A program made the translations under genes and the position numbers. Below, piece by piece: positions 47,871 through 64,000 of a stretch of 64,000 nucleotides of DNA (the stretch's first letter is position 1; every line of letters begins with the position of its first letter). Source of the DNA: Candidatus Eremiobacteria bacterium (GTDB lineage: Bacteria > Vulcanimicrobiota > Vulcanimicrobiia > Vulcanimicrobiales > Vulcanimicrobiaceae); assembly GCA_963758295.1 (NCBI GenBank), contig CAVWUU010000003.1, forward strand, positions 96,001 through 160,000. Direction: 5' to 3'. Below the pieces are notes generated by a model. That model ran no database searches, had not been told where the DNA came from, and saw only the letters and a list, made by a program, of their open reading frames with translations.

Positions 47871-50042
47871 ATGCGCCCTTTCGCTGCAGTACTTCTCGCG
47901 TGTTCCCTCCTTGCTGCATGCACCGGAAATCAGTCGTCGACGTCGGAGAGTTCCGCTTCTCCGGGAGAGACCGCTTCGGCGAATGCATCACCGGCTGAAT
48001 CCGCGTCTCCGCTTGAATCCGGATCGCCCGGTACCTCCGCTGCGCCGGCGAATTTCCCCGATGCAACCGTGTTGCTGAATTCACAAAGCGATAACAACAA
48101 CTGGCCGATTTCGGGCAAAACGTATGGCGGCAATCGTTTGACCGGGCTCACGCAAATTACGCCGTCCAACGTCAATCAACTGAAGAAGGCGTGGGTCACT
48201 GCCGTTGCGGACGACGGCGAAGAGGAAGCATCGCCCATCGTTTGGGACGGCGTCGTGTATCTCTCCACCGCGCACGATAATATGCTGGCTCTGGACGGAA
48301 CGACCGGAAAATTAAAGTGGGCGTTCGGCTACAATCCGTCTTACGAGTTGCAATACGCCGTCAATCGCGGCGTGGGATTAGCCAACGGAAACGTGTACAT
48401 CGTTACGCAAGATTGCCGCCTTGTGGCAGTTGACGCCGCCACGGGCACGCAACGCTTCAACGTTCCGGCCTGCCACGATACGTCCGATGCGTGGTACTCC
48501 ACCGCATCGTACGTTTATAAGGACAAGGTGATCGTCGGTACGTCGGGCGGCGATTTGGGCGGCAGCGGATTGGTGAGCGCGTTTGATGCGAATACGGGAA
48601 ACCGTCTATGGGATTGGCACACTGTCGCGCAGCCCGGCGAAGCGGGACACGAAACGTGGCCGGGTGATTCTTGGAAGCACGGCGGTGCCGCGGTTTGGGC
48701 CGGATTGTCGATCGGCCAAGACGACGACACCGTTTATGCAGCTCCGGGAAACGCCGGGCCTAACCTTACGGAATACGGACACAAAGGCAAGAATCTCTAT
48801 TCAGATTCCGTCGTTGCGCTCGACGTGTCCGGGTCGCAGCCGAAGTTGAAGTGGTATTACCAAGTTCTTCAAAACGACACCCACGACGCCGATCCGGCGA
48901 TGCCGCCGGTGCTTTTCGAGGCTAATGTGGGCGGCACGGCGCGCAAGCTTCTTGCAACCGGCGATAAGGCCGGAGACTTCGTCGTCCTGGATCGCACGAA
49001 CGGCCAAGAGGTTTATCGTACCGCCGTAAGCTCGCAGTCGAATCTCGATACGCCTCCAACGACGCAAGGCGTGCATGCATGTCCGAATCACGGTGGCGGC
49101 GTCGAATGGAACGGCGGTTCCTACTCGCCGCAAACAAACATGTTCTACATTCCCAGTACGAATGAATGCGCGACGTGGAAGGTCGTTTACACCGGCGCCG
49201 TTCCGTACGTTCCCGGCCAGCCGTACACCGCCGGGCCGCTGCCGAAGCGACAACCCGCAACCGGCGTGATCACGGCAATCGACATGGGCACCGGTAAGGT
49301 GGCATGGAAAGACGCGGTCCCCTATCCGGCGCAAGGCGGCGTACTCGTGCAGTCCAACGGCTTGATCTTCACGAGCGACGCCAGCGGCCGCGTATACGCG
49401 CTCGACGCGAAGACGGGCAAAGACTTATGGCATGACGACACCGGTTCGTCGATCGTTGCGCCAATCTCCGCATATCAAGGATCTGACGGTAAAGAGTACC
49501 TCGTCCTCATTGCCGGCGAAGCGGGAAATCAGAAGACTCCGAATTTGCCCGCAACGCATGGCGCACGCATCGTCGCGTATACGCTTAATGCGTCGCAAAC
49601 CGCGATGAACGACGCGTCGGGACAACCGAAGGTGAACGTTGCGACCGCCGGCGGAGCAAAGACCGAAAGCGGCAACGCGCCCTCGACCGTGGGCCAAGGC
49701 ACGGCGCCCTATACGGCCGATCAGGCTTCGGCCGGCAAGAAAGTCTTCGAAACCCAGTGTTCGTCGTGCCATGGCGCGCAATTGCAGGGCGTTTCAGCGC
49801 CGGCCTTGAGCGGGCCGCAATTCGCACATGCGAACCTAAACGTTTCGCAGATTTATGCCATCGTCACCAAGCAGATGCCGCTTAGTGCGCCCGGATCGCT
49901 CTCGCAAGACGAATATGCCGACGTGATGGCGTACATTTTGAAACGTGATTGCGTGAAGCCGACCGCCGGAAATGAGAAGTTCCCGAGCACCAATCTTCCA
50001 GTGCTCTCCAAGGTGACGGTCGGCTCCGGAAGCTGCCCGTAA
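47871..50042 (+). CDS. PQQ-dependent dehydrogenase lipoprotein with C-terminal cytochrome c domain
   Basis: Lipobox LAAC; QITPSNVNQLKKAW; W-motifs (ALDGTTGKLKW, ALDAKTGKDLW); NRG; GGAAVW; NLYSDSVVALD; CP..GG..W; CSSCH and MP. Confidence 0.92.
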   Translation: MRPFAAVLLACSLLAACTGNQSSTSESSASPGETASANASPAESASPLESGSPGTSAAPANFPDATVLLNSQSDNNNWPISGKTYGGNRLTGLTQITPSNVNQLKKAWVTAVADDGEEEASPIVWDGVVYLSTAHDNMLALDGTTGKLKWAFGYNPSYELQYAVNRGVGLANGNVYIVTQDCRLVAVDAATGTQRFNVPACHDTSDAWYSTASYVYKDKVIVGTSGGDLGGSGLVSAFDANTGNRLWDWHTVAQPGEAGHETWPGDSWKHGGAAVWAGLSIGQDDDTVYAAPGNAGPNLTEYGHKGKNLYSDSVVALDVSGSQPKLKWYYQVLQNDTHDADPAMPPVLFEANVGGTARKLLATGDKAGDFVVLDRTNGQEVYRTAVSSQSNLDTPPTTQGVHACPNHGGGVEWNGGSYSPQTNMFYIPSTNECATWKVVYTGAVPYVPGQPYTAGPLPKRQPATGVITAIDMGTGKVAWKDAVPYPAQGGVLVQSNGLIFTSDASGRVYALDAKTGKDLWHDDTGSSIVAPISAYQGSDGKEYLVLIAGEAGNQKTPNLPATHGARIVAYTLNASQTAMNDASGQPKVNVATAGGAKTESGNAPSTVGQGTAPYTADQASAGKKVFETQCSSCHGAQLQGVSAPALSGPQFAHANLNVSQIYAIVTKQMPLSAPGSLSQDEYADVMAYILKRDCVKPTAGNEKFPSTNLPVLSKVTVGSGSCP

Positions 50043-50043
50043 C

Positions 50044-50424
50044 CTACGTCTGCCTCGGGAGCACGGCTTTCACGTAGTGATGGCCGTGCTCGTCCCTGCC
50101 GGCGCAAACGTCCTTCGCGAACTTCGACACAAGAAAAAGCCCACGTCCGCGATCGGCTAGAGGATCGCGCGGCAACGCGGGCGCGAGATTGAATCCCGGG
50201 CCTTCGTCGGCGACCGTCAAGATCGCCTCATTGTTTTGCAGCTCCACCGAAATTTCGATCGCGCCCGGAGCATGATAGACGACGTTCGTAACTAGTTCGC
50301 TATAGATCAGCGACGAGGCAAACGTATCCACCGGGAGCGCGGCATCGTCTTTCACCGCCGTCAAAAAGTTGTGGCAATGCCGTAACGCTTCACTCGCGTT
50401 CGGCGAGCGAAAATTCCACACCAT
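50044..50424 (-). CDS. RsbW-like anti-sigma/ATP-binding protein (HATPase_c)
   Basis: SELVTNVVYHA, VADEGPGF, DRGRGLFLVS. Confidence 0.88.
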   Translation of the reverse strand: MVWNFRSPNASEALRHCHNFLTAVKDDAALPVDTFASSLIYSELVTNVVYHAPGAIEISVELQNNEAILTVADEGPGFNLAPALPRDPLADRGRGLFLVSKFAKDVCAGRDEHGHHYVKAVLPRQT

Positions 50425-50518
50425 AAATCAGGTATACCCTAATTTCTCTGCTTGCTTCAGTCGCCGAACGCTTGCATGCAGTAATCGTCGCGGGACGCGG
50501 GAATGCCAAGTTTGCTAT

Positions 50519-51163
50519 ATGGCCTTGCGGATCTACCCCTTCGGCGAAAATGCGCTCGTGTTGGCGCACGAGCCGCCCGCGTCCATCGACATCCAGCGCC
50601 GAATTTGGACGCTAGCCGCGGCTGCGAAGGGGTGGAGCGGCGTCGCGGAGGCCGTTGCGGGCATGAACAACCTCACGGTCTTCTTCGAAGCCGGCATGGA
50701 CCGGCAGTCGTTGGAATCTCAGCTCGCGCAAGGATGGGAGCATTCTGGTGCCGCCCGCGTGCGCGGAGATTTGCACGACGTTGCCGTCCGCTATGGAGGC
50801 TCTTTCGGGCCCGACCTCACCGAAGTCGCGAAACGCTGTGGTATGTCCGAGGCCGAAGTCGTTCGTCTACATTGCGAGCGTGAATTCGAAGTCTATTTCC
50901 TCGGCTTTCAGCCGGGATTTGCGTACCTCGGCGACCTCGATCGAAAACTCGAGGTGCCGCGGCGCTCGGAACCGCGGTCCGCGGTACCGGCCCGATCCGT
51001 CGCAATCGCCGGAATGCACACCGCGATTTATCCGCTTCGCGCGCCGGGCGGCTGGCACGTCATTGGAAGCACGGAAGTGCGTCCGTTCGATCTCGAGCGT
51101 TCCGAACCAGTGCTGTTCAAGCCGGGAGATCGCGTGCGCTTCCGGCCGGTAGACGCCGCATGA
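50519..51163 (+). CDS. pxpB: 5-oxoprolinase subunit B
   Basis: YGGSFGPDL, GFQPGFAYLG, IYP..APGGWHVIG, PGDRVRF. Confidence 0.93.
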   Translation: MALRIYPFGENALVLAHEPPASIDIQRRIWTLAAAAKGWSGVAEAVAGMNNLTVFFEAGMDRQSLESQLAQGWEHSGAARVRGDLHDVAVRYGGSFGPDLTEVAKRCGMSEAEVVRLHCEREFEVYFLGFQPGFAYLGDLDRKLEVPRRSEPRSAVPARSVAIAGMHTAIYPLRAPGGWHVIGSTEVRPFDLERSEPVLFKPGDRVRFRPVDAA

Positions 51164-52122
51164 CGCGTTTCCTCGAAGTGTTGCGCCCGGGATTGCTTTC
51201 CAGCGTTCAAGACGTTGGGCGGCTGAACCACCGGGCCGAAGGCATTGCTGCATGCGGCGCGTTGGATCCGTTGGCGCTTGCAGCAGCAAACGTTCTTGCC
51301 GGCAATGCCCGCGAGGCTGCGGCCATCGAAATTACGATGGGAAATGCGGCATTTCGATTCTCGACGTCGCTTCGGTTCGCGTTGAGCGGCGCCGAAACGA
51401 ACGCGACGCTCGACGGCTCACCCATTCCGTCTTGGAGTTGCGCGACCGCGACCGCCGGCCAAACGCTCGAATTGCGCGCACCGGTGAGCGGCATGCGATC
51501 TATTCTTGCAGTTGCCGGCGGCGTAGACGTTCCGCAAGTTCTCGATTCACGCAGTACCGATTTGCAAGCGGCATTCGGCGGATTCGGAGGACGCGCGTTG
51601 CGCTGCGGGGACCGCTTGGCGATCGGCCTTACACAAGTCGAACCTCCGGCGAAGTTTCGCATCAAACCGCCGCATTGGCAATTCGATCCGCATGAAGTGG
51701 GCGTTCTGCCGGCTCCCGAGCGCGCGCAATTCACGATCGAATCGCAAGGAGCGTTCTTCGACACGGCGTGGACCGTAACGCCGCAAAGCAATCGAATGGG
51801 CTACCGGCTGGCGGGCGCGGTCTTACGGTGCCGAAGCGATGCAGGCGCGATGCTTTCCGCCGCCGTCTTTCCCGGAGTCATTCAAGTGCCGCCGTCGGGG
51901 TCGCCAATCGTGCTTCTCAACGATGCGCAAACGACGGGCGGGTATCCGCGCATCGGCGTCGTCCGTGAATCGGATCGTTGGAAACTGGCAGGCATTGTGC
52001 TCGGCGCGCAAATCCGGTTTGTCCCTTCGACGCTCGAAGCGGCGGAAGAAGCAAAACGGCACGTCGACCGGTACCTCGACGAAGTGGAAGCTGCCGTTAC
52101 GTCGCGAATGAATTCCCTCTGA
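51160..52122 (+). CDS. pxpC: 5-oxoprolinase subunit C
   Basis: SVQDVGR, SRSTD, SNRMGYRL, DAQTTGGYPRIG; ATGA overlap with pxpB. Confidence 0.93.
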   Translation: MTRFLEVLRPGLLSSVQDVGRLNHRAEGIAACGALDPLALAAANVLAGNAREAAAIEITMGNAAFRFSTSLRFALSGAETNATLDGSPIPSWSCATATAGQTLELRAPVSGMRSILAVAGGVDVPQVLDSRSTDLQAAFGGFGGRALRCGDRLAIGLTQVEPPAKFRIKPPHWQFDPHEVGVLPAPERAQFTIESQGAFFDTAWTVTPQSNRMGYRLAGAVLRCRSDAGAMLSAAVFPGVIQVPPSGSPIVLLNDAQTTGGYPRIGVVRESDRWKLAGIVLGAQIRFVPSTLEAAEEAKRHVDRYLDEVEAAVTSRMNSL

Positions 52123-52124
52123 AG

Positions 52125-52826
52125 ATGACGGTCGATCTGAATGCCGACGTGGGCGAGGGCTGTGCGAACGACGCAGCGCTATTCGAAATCGTAACGTCGG
52201 CAAACATTGCGTGCGGATGGCACGCGGGCGACGAAGAGACAATGCGACGCACCGTGCGCGCCGCGATGACGCACGGCATAGCGATCGGCGCACACCCGTC
52301 GTATCCCGACCGCGAGCGTTTCGGACGCGCGCCGATGAACCGAGCGACCGAAGACGTCTACGCCGACGTGGCGGCGCAACTTCGCTCCCTACACGCGGTG
52401 GTCGCAAAAGAAGGCGGAGCGTTGCGGCACGTGAAGGCGCACGGCGCATTATATAACGCCGCTTCCGCAGATCGCATTATAGCCGACGCCATCGTAGCAG
52501 CGGTGCGCGACTTCGATCCAGCACTGGCAGTCGTCGGACTTGCCGGAGGCGCCCTGATCGACGCAGCGACACGTGCCGGCATGCGCGCCGTCCCGGAAGG
52601 CTTCGCCGACCGCCGTTATGACGGCGCCGGAATGCTCGTGCCCAGAACGGCGCCCGGCGCCTTCGTTGAGAATGCCGACGAAGCTCTGGAGCAAACGCTG
52701 GCGCTAATAGGCCAAAAGGTTCAGTCGATCTGCCTCCACGGTGACGATCCGCATGCGCTGGAGTTTGCGAAGACGCTGCGCGACGGCCTGAAGAATTACG
52801 GCATTTCGATCGCTGCAGTACGATAA
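52125..52826 (+). CDS. pxpA: 5-oxoprolinase subunit A (LamB/YcsF)
   Basis: DLNADVGEG, SANIACGWHAG, GAHPSYPD, HVKAHGALYN, EGFADRRY, ICLHGD. Confidence 0.95.
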   Translation: MTVDLNADVGEGCANDAALFEIVTSANIACGWHAGDEETMRRTVRAAMTHGIAIGAHPSYPDRERFGRAPMNRATEDVYADVAAQLRSLHAVVAKEGGALRHVKAHGALYNAASADRIIADAIVAAVRDFDPALAVVGLAGGALIDAATRAGMRAVPEGFADRRYDGAGMLVPRTAPGAFVENADEALEQTLALIGQKVQSICLHGDDPHALEFAKTLRDGLKNYGISIAAVR

Positions 52827-53015: not shown

Positions 53016-53453
53016 ATGGAATGGAACCACCGAGTCGCCGCGTTGTTCCTCACGTTCGTGGTTTCAGCCACGGCGTTTGCCTATGCGGCCGCTCCCAGCG
53101 TTCAGCTCAAGCTGAGCGGATCGATCGTTACTTCAACCGCGCCCGGAAAGACGGCATACTTGCCGCTTACGCGATCCGTGAAAGCCGGCGAAGTCGTCCG
53201 CTACACGATCGTGGCGCATAACGGCGGCAGCGCGCCGGCCTATCAGCTGGCTCCGGTCGGCAACATTCCCGCGCGGACCGCGTTCTTGAAGATTGACGAA
53301 TCGCCGCAGGGCGCGCACGTCGAATATACGGCTGACGGTAAGAAATGGTCCAAGGCGCCGATGAGCGGAATGCGCTCTTTGCGTTGGACGCTCTCGCGTG
53401 CGCTGCCGCAAGGCGCCACGTCGACCTTCGCCTACGAGGTCCGCGTTAAATGA
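53016..53453 (+). CDS. Small secreted single DUF11-like Ig-domain protein
   Basis: GGAGGGG RBS; signal peptide AYA-A; AGEVVRYTIVAHNGG, IP, VEYTADG, LRWTL; ends STFAYEVRVK. Confidence 0.85.
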   Translation: MEWNHRVAALFLTFVVSATAFAYAAAPSVQLKLSGSIVTSTAPGKTAYLPLTRSVKAGEVVRYTIVAHNGGSAPAYQLAPVGNIPARTAFLKIDESPQGAHVEYTADGKKWSKAPMSGMRSLRWTLSRALPQGATSTFAYEVRVK

Positions 53454-55942
53454 AGCGGTATCTCGTTTCTGCAGCAGCGTGGCTGACGGCAGCATCACTT
53501 GCCGCTAATGTGGTTTTGCTTCCGCTTGGAAGCGACGCCGCGAACGGCCACGACGATCCAGGCACGCAAATTACGAACAGCGCAAGCGCCGTCTATAAAG
53601 ACGCCGCCGGCAATACGTACAACACGACTTCCAACACCGTAACGACGACGGTGCAAAACGCGCCGACGTTGACGAACGTTCAAGGCAGCGGCACGAGCTA
53701 TGCGCCGGGTCAGACGATCGCCGACACGTTCGTCATCACGAACACCGGTAACGGCCCCGGCACGTTGCAGCTTTCCGATTCGAGCGCGGCACCGACTGCT
53801 TCATCGGATGCCGTTCTCGCGGGCAGCGATGCCGCCTCAGCAACGCTCGGCAACAACGCCGCGACCTGTACCACTCCGGTCGGATCGCAGTCTGCGCCGT
53901 GTAAGTACTCGGCCACCGTCGGCGGCACGACGTACTCCTTCACGAGCTTCAACGGCACGTCGGACAACAATTCCCTCGACTACTGGCTGTTGCACACCAA
54001 TGGAACGACGGCAGCCGGCTCGTCCATCACCGTCACGGTGTATTACACCCTCTCGAATTCGGCGACGACGCCCGGAACCGTAACGTCGCAGATCTTTGCG
54101 ACGGTCGCGTATGCCGCGTCGGGAAGCGCTCCTGCCGAGACCTCGGCGTCGGTTTCCGCAACGGAATCGAACACGGTGACCGCCGATGCGCGCCTCGACT
54201 TATACAAGGCGAGCTCGCAAAACGGCTCGACCGGCGACATCACCTATACGATCTCCGCGCATAACGGTGGCGCGTTTGCCGCCAAGGACTTGCAGTCTGT
54301 CAAAGCGCTCCTCGGTGCAGCCACGGCCGGTGTCTTCATCACCGATCGCATTCCGCAGTTCGGTGGATCGCCGTTGACGCTGAGCAACTCCGGTGCGGTT
54401 ACGGTTACGCCGAATGCTGCTTACGGTTATGCGACCGGCGCTACGGCGGACGTGTACTACACGACGTCGGCGAACGGCTCGTCGGGCTGGACAAAGGCTG
54501 CGGGAAATCTTCCGACCGACGGCACCGTCACGTACATCGGCATCTTTATTCACGGCGGTACGTGTACGAGCGCCGGGTACGAGCTATGCGCCGATACCGG
54601 GCACGGGACGACTCCGGGCAACGCAAACGTTGCATCCGCCGCCGCCCTGCAATTTGCGTTCACCGTCGCACAGCCCACGGGGCCGGGATCCGCTAACTCC
54701 GGTTCGGTGAAGAACATCGCGAACGGCGTCATCGGCGATAACCAGCCGACGGAACATATTCTGGGACCGGGTATTCCGGGCGGTACGGCCGATAGCGGTT
54801 CGTCGACGCCGCTCACCACGGCCGGACAGGGCGTGAACAATACGACGAACACGTCCACCAACGGCGGATCGAATCAAACCAGCGATCAGGCGTTGTCGTC
54901 CTATGCACCGTTGAATGGACCCGCGGGCCAGCCGGCGGCGACTGGAAGCTACGACGGCGCCGTCGCGAGCAATACGAGCGACGACTTTACTGCATATCCG
55001 TTTGGTCTTGCCGGTGATGCCGTCGCCAACACCAGCACAACCCCCGGCACTCCGACCACCGTCGCGACGCTTGGTGCCGGCGGCCAGACGCTCTGTGTGC
55101 CGAACACCGTAAAGAACAACGGCAACCACGACGACGCGTTTAACGTCGTCGCCAATGCCCCGACGCAGTACGCCGTCCCGGCTACTACCGGCGGTACGGT
55201 GGTCGCCACGTGGAAGGTCGGCATCTACTCGGACAATCTGTGTAGTTCCGCGCTCGGCGGTGCTACGGACGGCTCCAGTTCGTCGACTGCTTCGAACGTG
55301 AGCGTCACGTCCGGAAATGCGCTCAACTATTATGTGAAGTATATTGTGCCGGCCGGCGCGCCGTACTTCAATCGCTTCGACTCGGTAATCACGGCGACGA
55401 GCATCGGCGACAACACCAAGTCCAACACGACGCACGACGAACTATACTCCGGCTTCATTGCTCTGACGAAATCGCAAAGCGTCACAAGCAACGGCTGTCC
55501 GGCAGGCGTGTCACCGTCCTACGCGGCCAACACGGTTTGTCCGACCGGCGTACTGAAATACACCGTCGACTACCGCAACCTCGTAATGGGCACGAGCAGC
55601 ACGAACGCTTCGTTTAGCGCGGTCGTCACCTCGGCTGGCTCGTTGCAAATCACGGATGACGGCACGCTTTCCACATCGGCCTCAAGCACCACGACGCCGA
55701 ACTGGGCATCGTTCGCGGCAATGACGGCGTCGCCGGCCGATACGACGACGGGTTCGACCTACACGTACTACACCGGTGTACCGGCGAGCGGCGGCGGCAG
55801 CGCGACGTGGTCGTCGAGCGCAACGAAGTTCATCGACCTTGTCGGCGGAGCTGCGTTCCAATTGGTTCCTAAAAACTACAACGCTCCGTCTGCGTCGCAA
55901 GGAAACCAAGGAACGATCCAGTTCTCGATCTCGGTACAATAG
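53450..55942 (+). CDS. Large secreted Thr/Ser/Gly-rich DUF11-type multi-Ig protein (candidate fibre shaft subunit)
   Basis: Signal peptide; N-terminal PGTQITNSA..Y..SNTVTTTV; Ig repeats with TNTGN and KNNGN; DUF11 units LYKA..ITD..KNIA and LTKS..ITD; ends TIQFSISVQ. Confidence 0.85.
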   Translation: MKRYLVSAAAWLTAASLAANVVLLPLGSDAANGHDDPGTQITNSASAVYKDAAGNTYNTTSNTVTTTVQNAPTLTNVQGSGTSYAPGQTIADTFVITNTGNGPGTLQLSDSSAAPTASSDAVLAGSDAASATLGNNAATCTTPVGSQSAPCKYSATVGGTTYSFTSFNGTSDNNSLDYWLLHTNGTTAAGSSITVTVYYTLSNSATTPGTVTSQIFATVAYAASGSAPAETSASVSATESNTVTADARLDLYKASSQNGSTGDITYTISAHNGGAFAAKDLQSVKALLGAATAGVFITDRIPQFGGSPLTLSNSGAVTVTPNAAYGYATGATADVYYTTSANGSSGWTKAAGNLPTDGTVTYIGIFIHGGTCTSAGYELCADTGHGTTPGNANVASAAALQFAFTVAQPTGPGSANSGSVKNIANGVIGDNQPTEHILGPGIPGGTADSGSSTPLTTAGQGVNNTTNTSTNGGSNQTSDQALSSYAPLNGPAGQPAATGSYDGAVASNTSDDFTAYPFGLAGDAVANTSTTPGTPTTVATLGAGGQTLCVPNTVKNNGNHDDAFNVVANAPTQYAVPATTGGTVVATWKVGIYSDNLCSSALGGATDGSSSSTASNVSVTSGNALNYYVKYIVPAGAPYFNRFDSVITATSIGDNTKSNTTHDELYSGFIALTKSQSVTSNGCPAGVSPSYAANTVCPTGVLKYTVDYRNLVMGTSSTNASFSAVVTSAGSLQITDDGTLSTSASSTTTPNWASFAAMTASPADTTTGSTYTYYTGVPASGGGSATWSSSATKFIDLVGGAAFQLVPKNYNAPSASQGNQGTIQFSISVQ

Positions 55943-55950
55943 AACAACCC

Positions 55951-58125
55951 ATGAAAGCACGGCCCGCTCTTCGGGTTGTAGCGACTGTCGCGTTGTGCTG
56001 CGTCTTTGCGGCACAGCGCGGTTTCGCTGCTCCTGCGGGCGGCGCCGCAATCGTGAACGCGGTTTCGGCAACCTACGCCGACGCCGCTTCGCACGTGTAT
56101 CAGACGTCGTCTAACGCCATCGTCGCTACGGTCGCGAGTCTCTCGTCAGTCGTCGTTTCGCCGAAGGAAGCCTCGGCAAACGCCTCGGCGGACGGAGTGC
56201 CCGTCGCCTCGACGGTGACGCGGACTTTCACGATTACCAATACTTCCAATATTCCAGACGCGTATCAGATCGACAAACTTTCGGCTGGTACGCTGGCTAT
56301 TTCCAAAGTCGTGTGGATTACTTCATCGGGCTCGATCGCAACCCGCATCAACGGCAGCACGTCGCCGGCTGTTGCGCCCAACGCCTCGATCTCCGCGCAG
56401 GTTACGATTTCCACGAACGGCATGACGATCGGCCAGAGCGTGGCGATACAATTTGAAGCGCATACGACGGTAACCGGCACGCAGAACGGCATCGCTGCGG
56501 ACAGCGGGCAACAGTGGCTTGTCGGCACGTCGGGTCCGCATCTCGTAGGCCCCGCGGGCGCGAACACCCTCGTTTCCAAAACGGTGAACGAATCATCGCT
56601 TGTGCAATCACAGCCCGGAAGTTCCGTGCAGTTCCAAATTGCCGCGAAAAATGCGGGCGGCAGTGCGGCGACCAACGTGAAGATTTCGGATCCCGTCCCT
56701 GCGGGATTGGCGATCGATTTGTCGTCGGCGACGATCGACGGACAGCCGGCGGGCGCGCAAGCTTCCGTGTCGGGACAGACGATTACCTTCGTGATCCCGC
56801 AGCTCGACGGCGGCGTTATGCTGAACGTGGCGTTTCGCGCATCTTTGCCGCCGGGCAACACGCTTGGACAATCCTTCGTTAACGTTGCATCTATTTCCGC
56901 GGACGGCATTCCGGCGCAAGGCACTACGCCGGCCGACGTCTTCGACGGCTCGGCCGACATCGTGTTCGACGGCTATGCCGGCGGCTCGCATCCGGTCGGC
57001 GGCGCAACCGTAGCGTTGCTGGACGCAGCCGGTAACCCGGTGAATCTCGCGTCTGCGACCCCGGCAGATCGCGCGCGCATGGCTTCGGCGGCGCAGAGCG
57101 GGACGACCAATCCGGTCGTCACCACCAACGACGGAACGTATGGATTTGCGCTTTCCGCATCCGCCATCCCGTCGCAAGGCGCGCGCTATTACTTGACAAT
57201 TGCCGCGCCCGGGTATCTGAACCGCCGTATCGCGGTCGACGTTGCACCCGCGGCTCATGCGTCCTTTTACAATGTTACCCAAACCTCAGTGGACGGTCAG
57301 CCGCTTGCGATGGCGGGCGGCTTTACGCTGACGAAAAACAACGTCAGCATTCAAGACGTTTTCGGATTGTTTGGAAACCTGCCGCTTTTCGCGCAAAGCA
57401 CCATCGTCGTTTCTAAGACGAGCGACAAACAGGCCGCATCGGCCGGCGATCGTGTGATGTACTCGCTACAGTTTCAAGACCAGTCGGCGATGGCGTTCAA
57501 CGACGTCGCGGTTGTAGACACGATGCCGGCCGGACTGGTCTACCTGCGCGGCACCGCTCGCCTTGACGGCGACGCGATCGAGCCGCGCGTTGAAGGGCGC
57601 ACGCTCACGTGGGACCTCAGCTCGCTCGCGCCTTCCGAACAACACACGATCGCGTATGCGGCGACGATTTTCGGCGACATCGCGCCCGGTTCGACGCTTA
57701 CGAATCAGGTTGCCGTTTCCGGAACGGGAAGTTCCGGCGGCGTGCGCGCGAGCGGATCCTCTTCGGCAACGGTGACGGTGCTCGGCGGACCGTTTTCCGC
57801 GCGGCGCGTCGTGGCGGGACGCGTGTTCTTCGACGATGCCAAAACGGGAACGTTCGCTAAGGGCGATCGCGTCGCCGCGGGCGTTCGCGTGTTCATGGAA
57901 GACGGTTCGTTTGCGTTAACCGACGTTAACGGCGCGTTCTCGTTCCCCGCGGTCCGTCCGGGCATGCATGCATTGCGCCTGGATCCGCTTTCGCTGCCGG
58001 CTAATGCGCTCGTCGCGAGCGATGCGCCGATGACTTCGCCGTACTCGCTCGAACGGTTGCTGCACGGCATTTTAGACGACGCAACGATGGAAGACGTCGA
58101 GTTCGCGTTGGAGCCGAAATCGTGA
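55951..58125 (+). CDS. Secreted DUF11-repeat protein with C-terminal SdrD-B/carboxypeptidase-regulatory-like domain
   Basis: Signal peptide; two complete DUF11 units (VSKT..SDPVP..FVNVA; VSKT..VDTMP..LTNQV); GRVFFDD..GVRVFMEDG..TDVNGAFSF..PGMHALRLD. Confidence 0.87.
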   Translation: MKARPALRVVATVALCCVFAAQRGFAAPAGGAAIVNAVSATYADAASHVYQTSSNAIVATVASLSSVVVSPKEASANASADGVPVASTVTRTFTITNTSNIPDAYQIDKLSAGTLAISKVVWITSSGSIATRINGSTSPAVAPNASISAQVTISTNGMTIGQSVAIQFEAHTTVTGTQNGIAADSGQQWLVGTSGPHLVGPAGANTLVSKTVNESSLVQSQPGSSVQFQIAAKNAGGSAATNVKISDPVPAGLAIDLSSATIDGQPAGAQASVSGQTITFVIPQLDGGVMLNVAFRASLPPGNTLGQSFVNVASISADGIPAQGTTPADVFDGSADIVFDGYAGGSHPVGGATVALLDAAGNPVNLASATPADRARMASAAQSGTTNPVVTTNDGTYGFALSASAIPSQGARYYLTIAAPGYLNRRIAVDVAPAAHASFYNVTQTSVDGQPLAMAGGFTLTKNNVSIQDVFGLFGNLPLFAQSTIVVSKTSDKQAASAGDRVMYSLQFQDQSAMAFNDVAVVDTMPAGLVYLRGTARLDGDAIEPRVEGRTLTWDLSSLAPSEQHTIAYAATIFGDIAPGSTLTNQVAVSGTGSSGGVRASGSSSATVTVLGGPFSARRVVAGRVFFDDAKTGTFAKGDRVAAGVRVFMEDGSFALTDVNGAFSFPAVRPGMHALRLDPLSLPANALVASDAPMTSPYSLERLLHGILDDATMEDVEFALEPKS

Positions 58126-61100
58126 TGAAACTTTCACGGTTTCTTCAGTGCGCGGGCGCCACGTTAAGCATGTTCGCTATATTCGGCCAGCAAACCGTGG
58201 GCGGTTCGTTCGCGGCTACGGTCACGCCTCCGGCCGCAGCCGCTACACCGGCGGCCTCCGCAGCACCGGCCGGCTTTGTGGTACCAAACGCTTCCGCGTC
58301 ACCCGCCGCGTCGGAAACCGCCGAGAGCCTTTCGAATCTCACCTACACGGCCACCGGGACGCTGCAGGCGTCGTTCGTCGCGCCGGTTAGCGATGATGCC
58401 TCACCGGTAACGGCCGCGCAAGTCGTCGTTTCTACGCAACGCGGTGCAGGCATCGAACTTCGCGCGAACGACGTCGTTATTGATTCCAAGCATCTCGGCA
58501 AACGCACCGTCAATACGAAGACCGGCGAAACGCAATACTTTTTTTACGGCGTGCCGCTCGCGCCCGGACCGAATACCCTAAGCGCAACGCCGCTGGGCGC
58601 GGGGGATACGCGCGGGCCTGAATCGTCGATAACGGTTTACGGTCCGTCGGAGGCGGCCAGCGTAAAGGCCGAATTCGGCCAACATCTTGTCGCAGACGGA
58701 AAGACGGCGGTACCCCTGAACATCACCGTCCTAGACCGTTTCGGCCACGCGTCACTTCCCGCTCAGCGCGTGCACGTTGCCATTCTCAGCGGCGACGTGC
58801 ACTTCGTCGATCTGCCGAAAGAGGACAGCGCACAAGCGGCGCCGGCCGCATCGCCGTCGCCCAACGTCGTGGCTTCGCCGCCGTCGCAGGGGCGCGAAGC
58901 GACTGTCGCGTTGCCCGTTGGTGCCTATTTCTCGCTGCGCGTGCAACCGGGCGTCGTAGCCGGTCCTTTCGAAGTTGAAATTCGAGCGGGGAACGCGTAC
59001 GCGCGTAAAACGTTTTATGTCGATCCGTTCGTCCGTTCGGCGTTCGTCAACGGCGTCGTCAGCGCGGGAACCGGCATCGTGCCGGGCGCCGTAGACGGCG
59101 ACGCGTTGTACGACAACGGCGGCGCGCGGCACGAGCGGCTGGCGATGTTCGGCACGGGCGCCGTCGGGAAGTCGCTGCTTACCGTCGCTTACGAATCGCA
59201 GAACCGGCTCTCGCCCGTGTCGTCTTTTGGCCCCTTCGTGGACGATCCCAACGAGCGTCCGTATTTGACCTACGGCGATGCCTCGCAAGTCACGTCGCCC
59301 TATCATTCCGAAGATCATCTCTACGCCCGTGTCGATCGCGGGCGCAGCAGCGCCATGTGGGGACAGTATCAAGCCTCAATCGGGCCGAACGACGTAGGAT
59401 CGTACCAGCAGTTGCTAAGCGGCGCGAAAGTGGATCTTTCGCTTGGTCGCGACGCGCGCGCAAACGTCGTGGGCTTTTCCGCTCGCAACGATCAAGCGTT
59501 CGTTTCTCAAATTCTTCCGGTCTCCGGTCTAGCTCAATTGATGCAGCCGCTACATCCGCAAATCGTCGTATCTTCCGAATTGCTGCAACTCGTGACGCTC
59601 GACCGCAGCACCGGCCTCGTCCTCCACGAAGTGCCGTTGCTACGGAACGTCGATTACACGATCGACTATGCCACCGGCACGCTGCGTTTCATCAACGTTC
59701 CGCTGCCGTACGACGAAGAATTCAACCCGCAAGTCATTTCGCTGCAGTACGAATATGAGGGCCCGGGCGTGCAGTCGCAGACGACGGGCGGCCAATTCAA
59801 CTACGATCTGTCGCCCGACCATCACACGAAGCTGCTGTTGAGCTACGTGAACGATGCTACCGGAACCCAGAATTTTGCGCTCTCGAGCGAAGCGCTGACG
59901 CGTACGTGGAGCGGCGGATCGGTGCACCTTTCGCGTGCGACCAGTTTTGGAATGATGCCGAACGCCGGGAACACGCTGCAGCTCGGCGGGAAAAAGTTCC
60001 GAACTCCGGAAGCGCGTATTCGTTTGCGTTCGACGAACGGGCTCGCGGGGATGCCGTCAACCTCGGATTTCAATCGACGACCGCCGGCTACGACGATCCG
60101 TTCGGCGGCTTCAGCACGCCGGGAACCAACGCATATCGTGCCCTGTGGAATCACGGAACGCAGACGAAGGGCCAGCTTTCGTTGAGCTACTCCGGCCAGC
60201 AGAACCACGGCGTCGGCGAGGAGAGCCGCGAAGGCGATCTGACGCTCCAATTGATCCGGACTCTCGCGCGTAACCTCACCGGCTCGTTCGGATTTACGCA
60301 ACACCAACAGCGCGTTGGCGGCGTGGTTTCAGCATCGCCGGCTCCGGGCGTCGCACTTGCAAACACGGCGCAAACGCAGGCGCAAGCCGCCCTCGACTAC
60401 CAACTTCCCAAACACTTCGGTGTCGCGATCTCCGAAGCCATGACGCTCGCGGGCTCGGACGTCGGTTCCACGCAGCCGTCGCAAACCGCCATCGAGGCCT
60501 CGTACGATCTTCCAAAGCAGGGGCGCATTTTCGCGCGCGAATTGCTGAGCGCGCAACCGTCGGCGACGTTTGCAAACTCGACTTCTAACTTGAACGTCGG
60601 CTCGGGCTCCACGCGCTCGCTGCAGCTCGGCATAGAACAGCCGCTTTCCTCGGCGACTTCTGTTAGCTCGCAATACGTGGTCGATCAGACCGGGTCGGGT
60701 TTGAACGTTTATGATGCCGCCGGCGTCGACGAACGGCTGCATTTGACCAAAACGATCGGCGCAAATTTTCAAGTGCAAGCCGCTAATGCGGTCGGCAACG
60801 GCGCGCAAGGGTTTACGCTTTTGAGCGGCACGCTTAACTATGCGGGCGTTCCCGGCGGCTTCCGTTCCTCGCTTTCGTACCAGGATCGCACGGGCGATAC
60901 CGGCGGATCCACGCTCGCCGCTGCCCTTGCGGGACGCGTTACGGCGAATGTTTCAGCCGTCGGGTTCATTCAGCACGCGTACGGAAACGGCATCGACGCG
61001 ATCAACGACCGCCTCTCGTTTGCGTATCGCCCGTCGACAAGCGACCGGCTCATCTCGCTCTTTGATTACACGCGCACAAACGGCGCGTCGTTGAGCGGTG

Positions 61101-61489
61101 AGGCTTCTAACGTGCTCTCGTTCGAAGAACTTTTCCACGCGACGCCGCGCTTGGAACTTGCAGGACGCATGGCGTACAAGCTTGACGGCGGCGGATTGTA
61201 CGTCGCAAAGACGACGCTGTACGCGCTTCGCGCACGGCAAACTATCGGCAAAACAAACGACATCGGCGCCGAAGTGCGCACAATTAACGTGCCGGGCGGA
61301 ACCGGTGCGCGCCAAACCGAAGTCGCGGTCGAAGCGGGTCAAACGCTGGGCCGCAGCGCGCGTGTTGGTCTCGGTTACAACCTCTCCGGCAGCGTCGATC
61401 CGACGCTCGTGGGACAAGCGCAACGCCATGGATTCTACCTGACGGTAACGTCTTTGATCGACCGGATCTTCGGATGGGGCAAACCGTGA
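58122..61489 (+). CDS. Large secreted protein with predicted outer-membrane beta-barrel, one frameshift near 59990
   Basis: Signal peptide; Ig-like region (LAPGPNTL, ADGKT); YLTYGDAS; LLRNVDYTIDYATGTLRF; long run of amphipathic beta-strands ending VGLGYN..GFYLTVT. ORFs 58122-60185 and 59906-61489 switch at GGGAAAAAG. Confidence 0.8.
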
Positions 61490-64000
61490 CGCGCCTTGTG
61501 ATGAAACGCGCGCTCGCAATGCTGTTGCTGGCTGCACAAACTGCGGCAGGGATAGCCGCCGGTGAAGTCGCCGCCGTTATTCCGGCTCAAGCAGCGTCGT
61601 ACACGTGTAATGCGGGCAAGGACGGTGCCGCCGGTTCGCTTACAGGCGCATACAACACCTATTACACGCCGCCGGCGGGTACGGCCGCTTCGGGCGCGAC
61701 GTCGATTCAGCTTGGAACCGTGGATACGGGCGGAGGCGGTGCTTCAACCGTCGTTGCTGCGGGGGATTTGTTGCTGATTATTCAGATGCAAGACGGCTCG
61801 CTCAACGACGTCAATTCGTCGTCGTACGGCATGACGAGCGTTGGAAACGCAGGTCTCTACGAGTACGTGCAAGTCGTCTCGGTCAGCGCCGGGACGGCGA
61901 CTATTTACGGTGCCAATGCCGGCAGGCCTCATCAATTCGTACACCGAAGCCGCGGCGACGAGTTCCAGCGGCCAGAAAACGTATCAAATCATTCGCGTGC
62001 CGCAATATGTCAGCGCCACGCTGACGGGCACGTTTCACGCCGGATACTGGGACGGAAAAACCGGCGGCGTGGCCGCGCTGGACATCGCGACGACGTTAAA
62101 CCTAGGCGGCGCTTCGCTTTATGCGACGGGTGACGGATTTCGCGGCGGCGGCGTATCGGTTGCCGGCGGCACCTCGAACTCGGCGGTTTTAAACAGCGAC
62201 TGGATGGTGCCAGGCTTTACGAACAACTCGAACCCGCCGTCGCATGGATTCAAAGGCGAAGGCATTCTCGGAACACCGGCGTACACGTTCGGTTACACCG
62301 TATTCACCACGCCGTCCACGCCCGCGAGCCCAACGGTCAATAAGGGCGCGGCCGACGGGTATCCGGGCGGCGACATGGCGCGCGGCGCGCCGGGTAACGC
62401 GGGCGGCGGCGGCACGGATGCCGATCCCGTTTCGAACGATCAAAACACCGGTGGCGGCGGCGGGTCCAACGGCGGGAACGGCGGCAACGGCGGCTGGCCC
62501 TGGACTCCGAGCGAGCCGCAGTATCCACAAAATTCTCCGGGCGCTAACGCTGCAGGGAATTATGCGGCAGCCGATGCCACGCACAATCCGGACATCGGCG
62601 GGCGCGGCGCAACGGCGATGACGCTTGCTGTTATCGCGCGTTTTCCTGGGCGGCGGCGGCGGCGCCGGTTCGAACAACAACGGTTCAAACAATAACTCTG
62701 CAAACAATTACGGTTCTTCCGGCGGAACAGGCGGCGGCATCATCATGATGCGCATCGCGCGACACGAGCGGTTCGCCGGCAACCATTTATGCCGACGGTA
62801 CTACCGGTCTCGCGCCCGACAACGACGGCGGGGGCGGCGGCGGAGCGGGCGGAACGGTTGTCATCACATCGCCGAAGCAGTTTACCGGCGTTACGGTCTA
62901 TGCTCGCGGCGCAGCGGGAACCTCGGCGTATTACAAAACCGCGGATACGAGCTCGACGACTGCACACGGCCCGGGCGGCGGCGGCGGCGGCGGTGCCGTT
63001 TATTCCAGCAGTCCCGTTACTGCAACCGTTAGCGGCGGTACAAACGGCGTGACCGTTTACGGCGTGAGCGAAGCGTATGGCGCAACGCCGGGCACGGCCG
63101 GCACCTCGTCGGTAATAAGCGCCGGTTCGATTCCGGGCGTGCCGTCCGGCGCCGAATGTTACACCACGCCCACGGCGACGTCGCCGTTGTACCTCGGTCC
63201 GGTCGATGCGACGGAAGCAACGTACAACGGGTCGGATTACACCGGTTCTTACAACGGCTCGGCGAGTGCAACGAACAACGATGATTTCACGGCGCGCAGC
63301 TTCGACCCCGGAGGCGTCGCCATGACGAACGCCGGAACGACGCCGGGCACGCCGGTTGGTAATGCGCTCGCCGGTACTGCGACGGTCAACGTCCCAAACG
63401 AGCTGTACTATAGCAACGCCGGCGTCAATTCCGCAAAGACGCTCACGCTAAGCGGGACTGCGCCGCTGACCCCATCAGGTTGGATTATCCGATTTTGCCC
63501 GGATAGTGCGGGTGTTCCGGACTGCAGCGGCGGGACAACAACGCCGTTTGCGCCCACTACAGCCGGCACAACCACCTCGACGACAATAGCCGTTGCCAAG
63601 AAACAGAATTCCGGGTCGGCAAAATTTTGGGCGGTCTACAGCGCGCCGACAGGCACTACCGCTTTCACGCGTTACGATTCCGTACTGAGCTTGGATGACG
63701 GCACGTCGACGAATCTCACGCACGATGAGCTTTACACCGGGTTCATTCCAATCACGAAGCAAACGACGGTGGTTGCTAACGGGTGTCCTGCGAACGTGAC
63801 GCCGCCGGCGGGCGGAATTTGTCCGGGCGGTGTTTTGCGATATACGCTTGATTACCGCAACATCATGACGGGTGCGGGACAAGGAACCGAAGGGCAGTTG
63901 CTTTCCGCGTTTCTGGCGACCGCGGCCGGACAGTTGAGCATCACCGACAACGGCGCGGCAGCGGGAAATTCGTGGGCCACGAATACGAACGGGCTGAAAG
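61486..64000 (+). CDS. Secreted Gly-rich adhesin-like protein with C-terminal DUF11-type domains; frameshifted and 3'-truncated by window
   Basis: Signal peptide; GDLLLIIQMQ, YQIIRVPQY, WDGKTGG, GFRGG, poly-Gly tracts. Frame 1 near the end reads HDELYTGFIPITKQ..GCP..CPGGVLRYTLDYRN..ITDNG, paralogous to the 53450 gene end. Confidence 0.83.

Follow-up and report, generated by a model that had tools for sequence, protein, structure and literature searches.

A proposed sortase-independent surface fiber of Eremiobacterota with a CnaA-like domain split across its subunits

Introduction

What becomes of an isopeptide-type immunoglobulin (Ig) domain when its last two strands are found not behind it but at the N-terminus of the same protein? 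The question is raised by an 830-amino-acid (aa) protein encoded in the genome of an uncultured soil bacterium of Candidatus Eremiobacteria (Vulcanimicrobiaceae; GenBank assembly GCA_963758295.1). The window analyzed is the whole 64,000-nucleotide stretch of contig CAVWUU010000003.1 from position 96,001 to 160,000, and the coordinates given below are positions within it. The protein, here termed the shaft subunit, carries both a donor and an acceptor end; it is the product of gene 2 (53450..55942, plus strand), one of five co-directional plus-strand genes that begin at 53016 and run to about 64218, past the end of the window. The answer favored here, with a probability of roughly 0.55, is that the operon encodes a sortase-independent surface fiber of diderm Eremiobacterota, covalent lock included. 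Completion of the truncated domain in trans by the hairpin of another subunit is likely; that a covalent lock is added to it is a claim held with only slightly more belief than doubt.

The two ends of the shaft subunit

Directly after the signal peptide stands the donor hairpin, residues 38-69 (GTQITN43SASAVYKDAAGNTYNTTSNTVTTTVQ; 53561..53656, plus strand). It includes N43 (codon 53576..53578), the asparagine proposed to be given in trans. The C-terminal acceptor domain, residues 662-830 (55433..55942, plus strand), has the look of a CnaA-like Ig domain without its penultimate and last strands. It carries LTK674S and ITD736DG and terminates at GTIQFSISVQ. K674 on the first strand (codon 55469..55471) is the proposed isopeptide lysine and D736 (codon 55655..55657) the proposed catalytic acid; each is conserved and each lies in the predicted interface described below. 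Between the two ends is an internal, complete domain with an intramolecular triad (54206..54715, plus strand), made up of K253 (54206-54208), D299 (54344-54346) and N422 (54713-54715). Since residues 43-72 hold eight of the 27 invariant columns in the 830-residue alignment (33 homologues), the hairpin is the most constrained part of the protein.

A sequence-only reading of the window had picked out these Lys, Asp and Asn motifs, and all are where it put them. For the shaft subunit they are LYKA at residue 251, ITDRIP at 297, VKNIA at 420, LTKS at 672, ITDD at 734 and ITNSA at 41; for the 724-aa product of gene 3 they are VSKT at 208 and 487, SDPVP at 246, FVNVA at 309, VDTMP at 522, LTNQV at 583 and IVNAV at 34. 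It had also held that the last domain of the shaft subunit stops short of the Asn strand, and this is general in the family. The stop codon comes directly after the GTITFxVxVK strand in all 27 full matches to the acceptor domain in related genomes (two of them from the unpublished genome G041). Searched with a profile built from the domain, 1.84 billion representatives gave 234 clusters at E <=0.001. Of the 150 clusters listed, 143 were examined and 89 reach the profile end; among these, 60 stop at its last residue and 82 within five residues of it.

Predicted pairing of hairpin and acceptor

The acceptor piece (residues 655-830) and the hairpin piece (residues 31-78) were co-folded, each with its family alignment. 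The interaction prediction score from aligned errors (ipSAE) was 0.83, 0.85 and 0.84 (median 0.84) versus 0.00 for the best of three controls. The ipSAE mark is reached by 116 of 157 solved complexes and by 2 of 215 mismatched pairs, counts that are rough here because a custom alignment was used. The predicted local distance difference test value (pLDDT) was at least 74 for the partners, and contacts agreed to at least 91% between runs.

In the co-fold the hairpin uses residues 37-54, 57 and 59-71 for the interface. Its strand 41-50 runs antiparallel to the Asp strand of the acceptor (731-736), with residues 41-43 touching 750-752, and its strand 59-71 neighbors the Lys strand (668-676), with K674 touching residue 61. 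D736 touches A45 of the hairpin, and from the register of this pairing we infer that N43, A45 and D736 are on the same face of the sheet. In CnaA-like domains, according to the CLIPPER survey, the first strand is bonded to the penultimate one across opposing sheets (PMC12617251). The predicted contacts give a layout of this kind: K674 belongs to the first strand and N43 to the penultimate one, and the strand of D736 adjoins the latter.

Sequence links to DUF11 are weak. When the separate pieces were aligned to complete DUF11 domains with hhalign, the alignments were short and faint, though the register was the one expected (E 9e-4 and 3e-3); for example, the hairpin falls on the Asn strand of a complete DUF11 domain with N43 onto N585, at a weak pairwise E of 0.003. 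A permuted profile, acceptor and then hairpin, spans the junction onto a complete DUF11 domain with E 4.4e-4 and a probability of 34% (48% in global alignment). Aligned globally to the other complete domain (probability 0.4%), the same profile puts K, D and N onto the matching residues.

The acceptor domain is also predicted to fold alone, with a pLDDT of 85 from AlphaFold2 (AF2). In an exhaustive structural search with VIA the best-represented group of matches was isopeptide pilin domains (e.g., RrgB D2 at Z 6.4, BcpA at 6.2 and SpaA at 5.8). The range Z 5.2-6.8 is filled mostly by such pilin and adhesin domains, PrgB, AgI/II, RrgB D2, BcpA, SpaA, SpaD and the CLIPPER structure 9ifr among them, and is a middling one that, by VIA's own note, may mean merely a common arrangement. 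Against 9ifr, within that range, Z was 6.2 with a root-mean-square deviation of 2.7 over 92 aligned residues. The full-length AF2 model of the 830-aa protein consists of tandem beta domains (mean pLDDT 85.5); a Foldseek search with it returned generic tandem-Ig matches only and was set aside.

Conservation and loss of the split triad

Of the three residues proposed to form the intermolecular bond, N43 is Asn in all 81 hairpin-bearing homologues and in 47 of 50 cluster representatives, K674 is Lys in 81 of 90 homologues and 44 of 50 representatives, and position 736 is Asp in 60 and Glu in 27 of the 90 (either acid in 87). In the internal triad, K253 is kept in 75, D299 in 82 and N422 in 74 of the 90 homologues. 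The complete split triad, N, K and D or E, is found in 72 of 79 shaft homologues; this count leaves out 11 of the 90 rows, namely P0031 (garbled), P0038 and P0069 (truncated) and P0085-P0092 (tip-type or other). Among hairpin-bearing cluster representatives it is complete in 43 of 50, and its carriers include the cyanobacterial isolate Fortiea sp. LEGE XX443 and metagenome-assembled genomes of Aphanothece and of Blastocatellia.

Losses of the split triad are coupled, either to those of the internal triad or in pairs of residues. A two-by-two table of split against internal triad in the 79 shaft proteins (69 and 3 in one row, 3 and 4 in the other) gives a Fisher p of 7e-4, uncorrected for relatedness; the four proteins that have lost both triads are at most 40% identical to one another. 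K and the acid are lost jointly in P0213, P0225 and P0249, and P0202 pairs an N-to-E change with a K-to-R change. In its clade, N43 has become E, T and A where K674 is R, N and R (P0202, P0343 and P0344, respectively); P0339 has E with K retained, and P0340 retains N with K changed to N. N43 is variable solely in this clade, where loss of K674 is frequent. Judged from the aligned residues, the triad pattern is more than chance.

Proteins of the decayed clade occur together. P0343, P0344 and P0225 share one 20.6-kb contig, and P0340 and P0341 one 32.4-kb contig, as shaft paralogues. With two or three such paralogues per contig, fibers in organisms of the decayed-triad clade may be heteropolymeric and non-covalent. 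Another departure is P0086 (1437 aa), which has three internal repeats of the shaft middle domain, a hairpin with Ser or Ala at the N43 position and a different C-terminal DUF11-like domain without the Lys and Asp; this protein may represent a form that does without the triad. Conservation in the acceptor is not confined to the proposed triad. G738 and W752 (55703-55705) are each present in 88 of 90 homologues, as conserved as the triad or more so, and W752 and its neighbors touch hairpin residues 41-43 in the co-fold model.

Donor and acceptor proteins of the operon

In six-frame scans of the source genome, a hidden Markov model (HMM) of the hairpin matched only the shaft subunit (E 4.7e-19) and the 724-aa product of gene 3 (55951..58125, plus strand; E 1.8e-13). 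The acceptor HMM matched only the shaft subunit (E 6.4e-65) and the product of gene 5 (61474..64000 and on to about 64218, plus strand; E 1.2e-39). Gene 2 therefore encodes donor and acceptor, gene 3 a donor only and gene 5 an acceptor only. The order small protein, shaft, donor-only protein, large protein and acceptor-only protein is repeated in G071, G031 and G070, which belong to different genera.

The donor-only protein consists of an N-terminal hairpin with N36 (56056-56058), two complete DUF11 domains and a C-terminal CarboxypepD_reg/SdrD_B-like domain. DUF11 matches it in two stretches (E 1.3e-20, 74.2 bits versus a cut-off of 24.6), and residues 208-316 match TIGR04226, the isopeptide-forming fimbrial domain of the RrgB D2 type, with 58 bits versus a cut-off of 30. 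N36, D247 and N311 are invariant in 33 of 33 homologues. The protein is a candidate terminator or anchor. The gene 5 product, the putative tip protein, has no hairpin; its Gly-rich middle is AgmC-N-like (AgmC_N E 1.1e-9, far below the cut-off) and is followed by the acceptor domain with its K and D. Intact orthologues are 714-982 aa long, and K, D and D are all present in seven of seven orthologues of the P0085 type.

Acceptor domains without a hairpin are not limited to this operon. Among the clusters listed, 43 long representatives reach the profile end, 28 with the hairpin and 15 with other N-terminal modules. In P0193, P0197, P0198, P0194, P0209, P0242 and others the acceptor domain has been found behind propeller-like, Gly-rich AgmC-like and other modules. 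The variety of modules in these at least 15 proteins suggests interchangeable tip adhesins.

There is no match to the sortase family PF04203 in the source genome (82% complete), and no LPXTG motif near the C-termini, the only fits to a loose pattern being VPASG at 777 and VPVAS at 83. No PapD-like chaperone or usher family was found when all operon products, together with the intact orthologues of genes 4 and 5, were scanned against Pfam and NCBIfam, and no operon product matches a TasA-related Pfam family.

Proposed fiber and alternative explanations

A fiber could be built from these parts as follows. The C-terminus of the shaft subunit would be a CnaA-like DUF11/CLIPPER domain that lacks its penultimate and last strands, and the free hairpin at the mature N-terminus would represent these two strands. 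The hairpin of one subunit would enter the C-terminal domain of the next and complete its sandwich. Insertion would bury N43 opposite K674 and beside the acid at 736, and an autocatalytic Lys-Asn isopeptide could then form, so that the fiber would become one covalent chain. The tip protein, with an acceptor only, could start the chain, and the 724-aa protein, with a hairpin only, could end or anchor it. The protein of about 1100 aa encoded by gene 4 is the likely outer-membrane exit or assembly platform, and the gene 1 protein may keep hairpins reversibly bound until they are assembled. Computation shows the architecture, the conservation and the synteny and predicts the complementation; the covalent bond, the sequence of assembly and what genes 1 and 4 do are inferred.

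The sequence-only reading had predicted an intermolecular isopeptide bond between shaft subunits. Its structural half, with the addition that the hairpin completes the truncated domain of another subunit, is well supported by the co-fold (0.84 versus 0.00), by the donor-only and acceptor-only proteins of a conserved operon and by the family-wide architecture. Its covalent half, K674 to N43 with D736, fits the conservation of the triad, its coupled loss, the precedent of 9IFR and the finding of neither sortase nor LPXTG.

Several results weigh against the proposed fiber or its lock. N43 stays Asn in six shaft proteins without K674, so that it could also have a structural role, and D737 (55658-55660) is at least as conserved as D736 (80 of 90). 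The co-fold may owe its pass to a likeness of the combined pieces to a known single domain, and since alignment rows were paired within one protein, cis and trans cannot be distinguished by it. Foldseek with the isolated acceptor domain gave no match at E <=0.001 (9ifr is at rank 48, E 0.48), and the top match of the VIA search, in which all Z are below 8, is an unrelated adaptor domain (Z 7.7). Pfam DUF11 matches none of 33 family members at E <=0.01, with the isolated acceptor domain and hairpin unmatched as well. The 830-aa protein has no Pfam match whatever and no TIGR04226 match, and at E up to 10 Pfam held nothing for the isolated acceptor domain, hairpin, internal domain or tip acceptor domain. 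Sequence searches of the PDB with the family profile and the 724-aa protein gave chance matches or none. Finally, genes 4 and 5 are frame-changed in the source genome; the system may be inactive here, or these may be assembly errors.

Complementation in trans could be non-covalent only, as in chaperone-usher or type V pili, with Lys, Asp and Asn kept for packing and hydrogen bonds. This is rather unlikely, perhaps one chance in four. The Asn retained without its Lys would fit such an arrangement, and whole sub-clades keep hairpin and acceptor without the triad, which indicates that complementation works without it; moreover, oligomers of BsaA, a donor-strand-exchange fiber protein discussed below, are SDS (sodium dodecyl sulfate)-stable even without the isopeptide, according to the preprint (bioRxiv 10.1101/2024.11.04.621531). 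However, the split triad is far better kept (72/79 and 43/50) than in the triad-less gene 1 family, it equals residue by residue that of a fold proven to cross-link, and it tends to be lost where the internal isopeptide triad is lost as well. The hairpin might instead fold back on the C-terminal domain of its own chain, giving a closed, stapled, monomeric adhesin and no polymer. The same-protein pairing of the alignment rows leaves room for this, since coevolution cannot separate cis from trans, but it is very improbable: the conserved operon holds a hairpin without an acceptor and an acceptor without a hairpin, both needing a partner in trans, as do the 15 of 43 hairpin-less long representatives among the clusters listed, and in the full-length AF2 model the hairpin has a pLDDT of 59-71 versus about 90 for the domains. 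Equally hard to credit is a set of separate fibrillar adhesins whose hairpins target or dock to the outer-membrane protein by beta-augmentation. The operon always encodes a large putative outer-membrane protein, as docking would require, but the hairpin looks like the strands that the acceptor lacks and is predicted with high confidence to fill it, and the acceptor domain always stops exactly where the hairpin would begin.

The fiber with covalent complementation can be extended to a broader picture, which is tentative and somewhat more likely wrong than right. The operon would represent an unrecognized class of diderm pilus with a CLIPPER domain split across subunits, an outer-membrane route belonging to no known family, a decoy in gene 1 and interchangeable tips that share the catcher domain. 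Polymerization and covalent locking would be one autocatalytic step outside the cell, and the triad-dead gene 1 protein would cap hairpins reversibly and stop premature locking. Carriers of such a pilus would be Eremiobacterota, cyanobacteria (Fortiea sp. LEGE XX443), Acidobacteriota and probably Deinococcus.

Genes 1 and 4

Gene 1 (53016..53453, plus strand) encodes a small secreted protein of 145 aa. Its residues 53-144 correspond to positions 11-84 of the 114-position DUF11 profile (E 7.8e-5, 23.4 bits versus the cut-off of 24.6), and the orthologue in G071 scores 26.7 bits, above the cut-off. Because the match ends at profile position 84, gene 1, too, lacks the last hairpin. In its family (n=22), 17 members end at the Y.V.VK strand, three have 5-7 extra residues, one has a long tail and one is cut short. 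Lys is found in 6 of 22 or 3 of 22 on two candidate first strands, and the Asp equivalent in 4 of 22, with mostly Gly at this position. As a truncated, acceptor-like domain without the cross-linking residues, the protein could speculatively be a non-covalent, reversible cap or chaperone for the hairpin.

Gene 4 (58122..61489, plus strand) encodes the putative outer-membrane assembly protein of about 1100 aa, in two frames here. In relatives it is a single open frame of 890-1765 aa (in G071, 1097 aa counted from the likely start). Neither it nor the intact G071 orthologue matched any family of Pfam or NCBIfam, and the nearest Atlas clusters are unnamed except for one 'outer membrane protein' cluster at 0.90. 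It is from position and size alone that an outer-membrane exit or assembly role is proposed.

Comparison with known systems

In the chaperone-usher pili (type 1, P) an incomplete Ig fold receives what it lacks from the N-terminal extension of the following subunit, the tip has no donor and the terminator no acceptor, and the operon includes an outer-membrane assembly protein. The proposed fiber has the same logic of tip, shaft and terminator. It differs in that the donor is a hairpin and not a single strand, in the proposed covalent lock and in gene 1, which is acceptor-like and not donor-like. In the sortase pili of Gram-positive bacteria (RrgB, SpaA, BcpA) shafts consist of isopeptide-stabilized Ig domains, and in the engineered pairs derived from them, such as isopeptag/pilin-C, SpyTag/SpyCatcher and SnoopTag, split isopeptide domains react in trans. 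Unlike these, the split seen here is natural and would serve as a polymerization joint, and no sortase or LPXTG was found.

The nearest structural precedent is CLIPPER (DUF11, PF01345), whose crystal structure 9IFR, as set out in the survey, has a Lys-Asp-Asn isopeptide formed by Lys715, Asp748 and Asn806 (PMC12617251). The split domain considered here is predicted to resemble it in having a CnaA-like Ig fold in which the Lys lies on the first strand, the Asp in mid-domain and the Asn on the penultimate strand; complete copies occur in the same operon. Unlike in CLIPPER, the last two strands have been moved from the C-terminal domain to the N-terminus of the protein, so that the proposed bond would join two chains. 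Intramolecular bonds are the only ones treated in the survey, from the text of which the terms 'split' and 'strand complementation' are absent (PMC12617251).

Strand exchange combined with an isopeptide lock has been described for two other fibers. BsaA of Clostridium perfringens, a member of the TasA family, combines donor-strand exchange with an autocatalytic Asn-Lys lock that has mutational support; N35 of the N-terminal donor bonds K74 of the next monomer with the help of E56, and mutants lose oligomers, as the preprint reports (bioRxiv 10.1101/2024.11.04.621531). The shaft subunit resembles BsaA in having an N-terminal, Asn-bearing donor and the Lys and acid of the next subunit, known here by prediction. 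In contrast, BsaA as described there has a TasA-like fold, a single donor strand, a Gram-positive host and the SipW signal peptidase, with no outer-membrane component and no set of tip, shaft and terminator; the donor considered here is the two-strand hairpin of a split CnaA-like domain. The archaeal thread Saci_0406 is built by donor-strand complementation with a proposed intermolecular isopeptide and no sortase, as reported (PMC9715654). Its bond links Asp24, through the N-terminal amine, with Asn57 in subunit n+2, with no Lys-acid-Asn triad (PMC9715654), and it is also archaeal and unrelated in sequence.

The sequence-only reading had likened hairpin and acceptor to a natural SpyTag/SpyCatcher-like pair. 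The idea is less unprecedented than implied, for BsaA already has an Asn-Lys lock. Strand exchange with an isopeptide lock is already known, from BsaA and the archaeal threads; what would be new is the proposed split CnaA-like/DUF11 joint. A literature search in which subscription journals are thinly covered found no account of such a polymerization joint or of this operon.

If the proposed fiber is real, diderm bacteria of several poorly studied phyla chain surface fibers covalently without a sortase, and a self-cross-linking Ig domain split across subunits is an added type of pilus. It would give a role to many 'hypothetical' and DUF11 proteins in Eremiobacterota and cyanobacteria, and would widen the 'exchange and lock' principle from TasA-like fibers to the CnaA-like fold. 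Hundreds of variants would then be at hand as natural, orthogonal tag/catcher pairs for protein engineering. A cultured cyanobacterium is in the family, which makes direct testing possible.

Distribution

Homologues of the operon proteins are filed as Eremiobacteraeota, Baltobacteraceae or Vulcanimicrobiaceae. Among 61 sampled genomes of the family the acceptor domain occurs in 20 (two of them unpublished, G041 and G054) and gene 1 in 21; for gene 4 the count is 10 of 21 relatives (one unpublished, G004).

Distant kin of the donor-only protein have been observed in Deinococcus. P0186 and P0187 (909 and 929 aa, from Deinococcus maricopensis and D. metalli, respectively) are DUF11 proteins that start, after the signal peptide, with a hairpin GT.I.NQAS...SN.V..TVQ. 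From this resemblance, the fiber system may also be present in cultured Deinococcus. A locus search with P0186 gave three loci only, the best being a GC-rich 5.5-kb contig, on which a P0186-type gene (L043:1148-3937) lies between another DUF11 gene and a large gene-4-like gene. This contig (NZ_JHXN01000024.1) is filed under a Taylorella asinigenitalis assembly and encodes a protein 45% identical to a Deinococcus protein; with its GC-rich look it may be a contaminant of that assembly.

State of the locus and neighboring genes

The source genome is 3.03 Mb in six contigs and 82% complete. Gene 4 changes frame near 59996, in an A5 run at ggcgggaaaaag (window 59961-60040). Gene 5, which is in at least three frames here, has at least two frame changes, one at about 61925 (window 61891-61960) and one between 62623 and 62761 (window 62601-62780). 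Both genes are single open reading frames in the orthologues of three other genera (G071, G031 and G070). The changes could be assembly indel errors or real pseudogenes; errors are plausible in that a six-contig genome of 82% completeness would fit them. No RNA sequencing run is listed as holding the locus. Three soil sequencing runs from one study hold 5-10% of the locus words, and their contigs cover 59392-59609, 59829-59981, 61302-61663, 61987-62137 and 62202-62352; none of these public soil-run contigs spans a frame-change site in genes 4 and 5.

The genes upstream of the operon, at 47871-52826, encode a pyrroloquinoline quinone (PQQ)-dependent dehydrogenase to which a cytochrome c domain is fused; a small HATPase_c_2 protein, read from the minus strand; and the 5-oxoprolinase components PxpB, PxpC and PxpA. 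These neighbors appear unrelated to the fiber operon.

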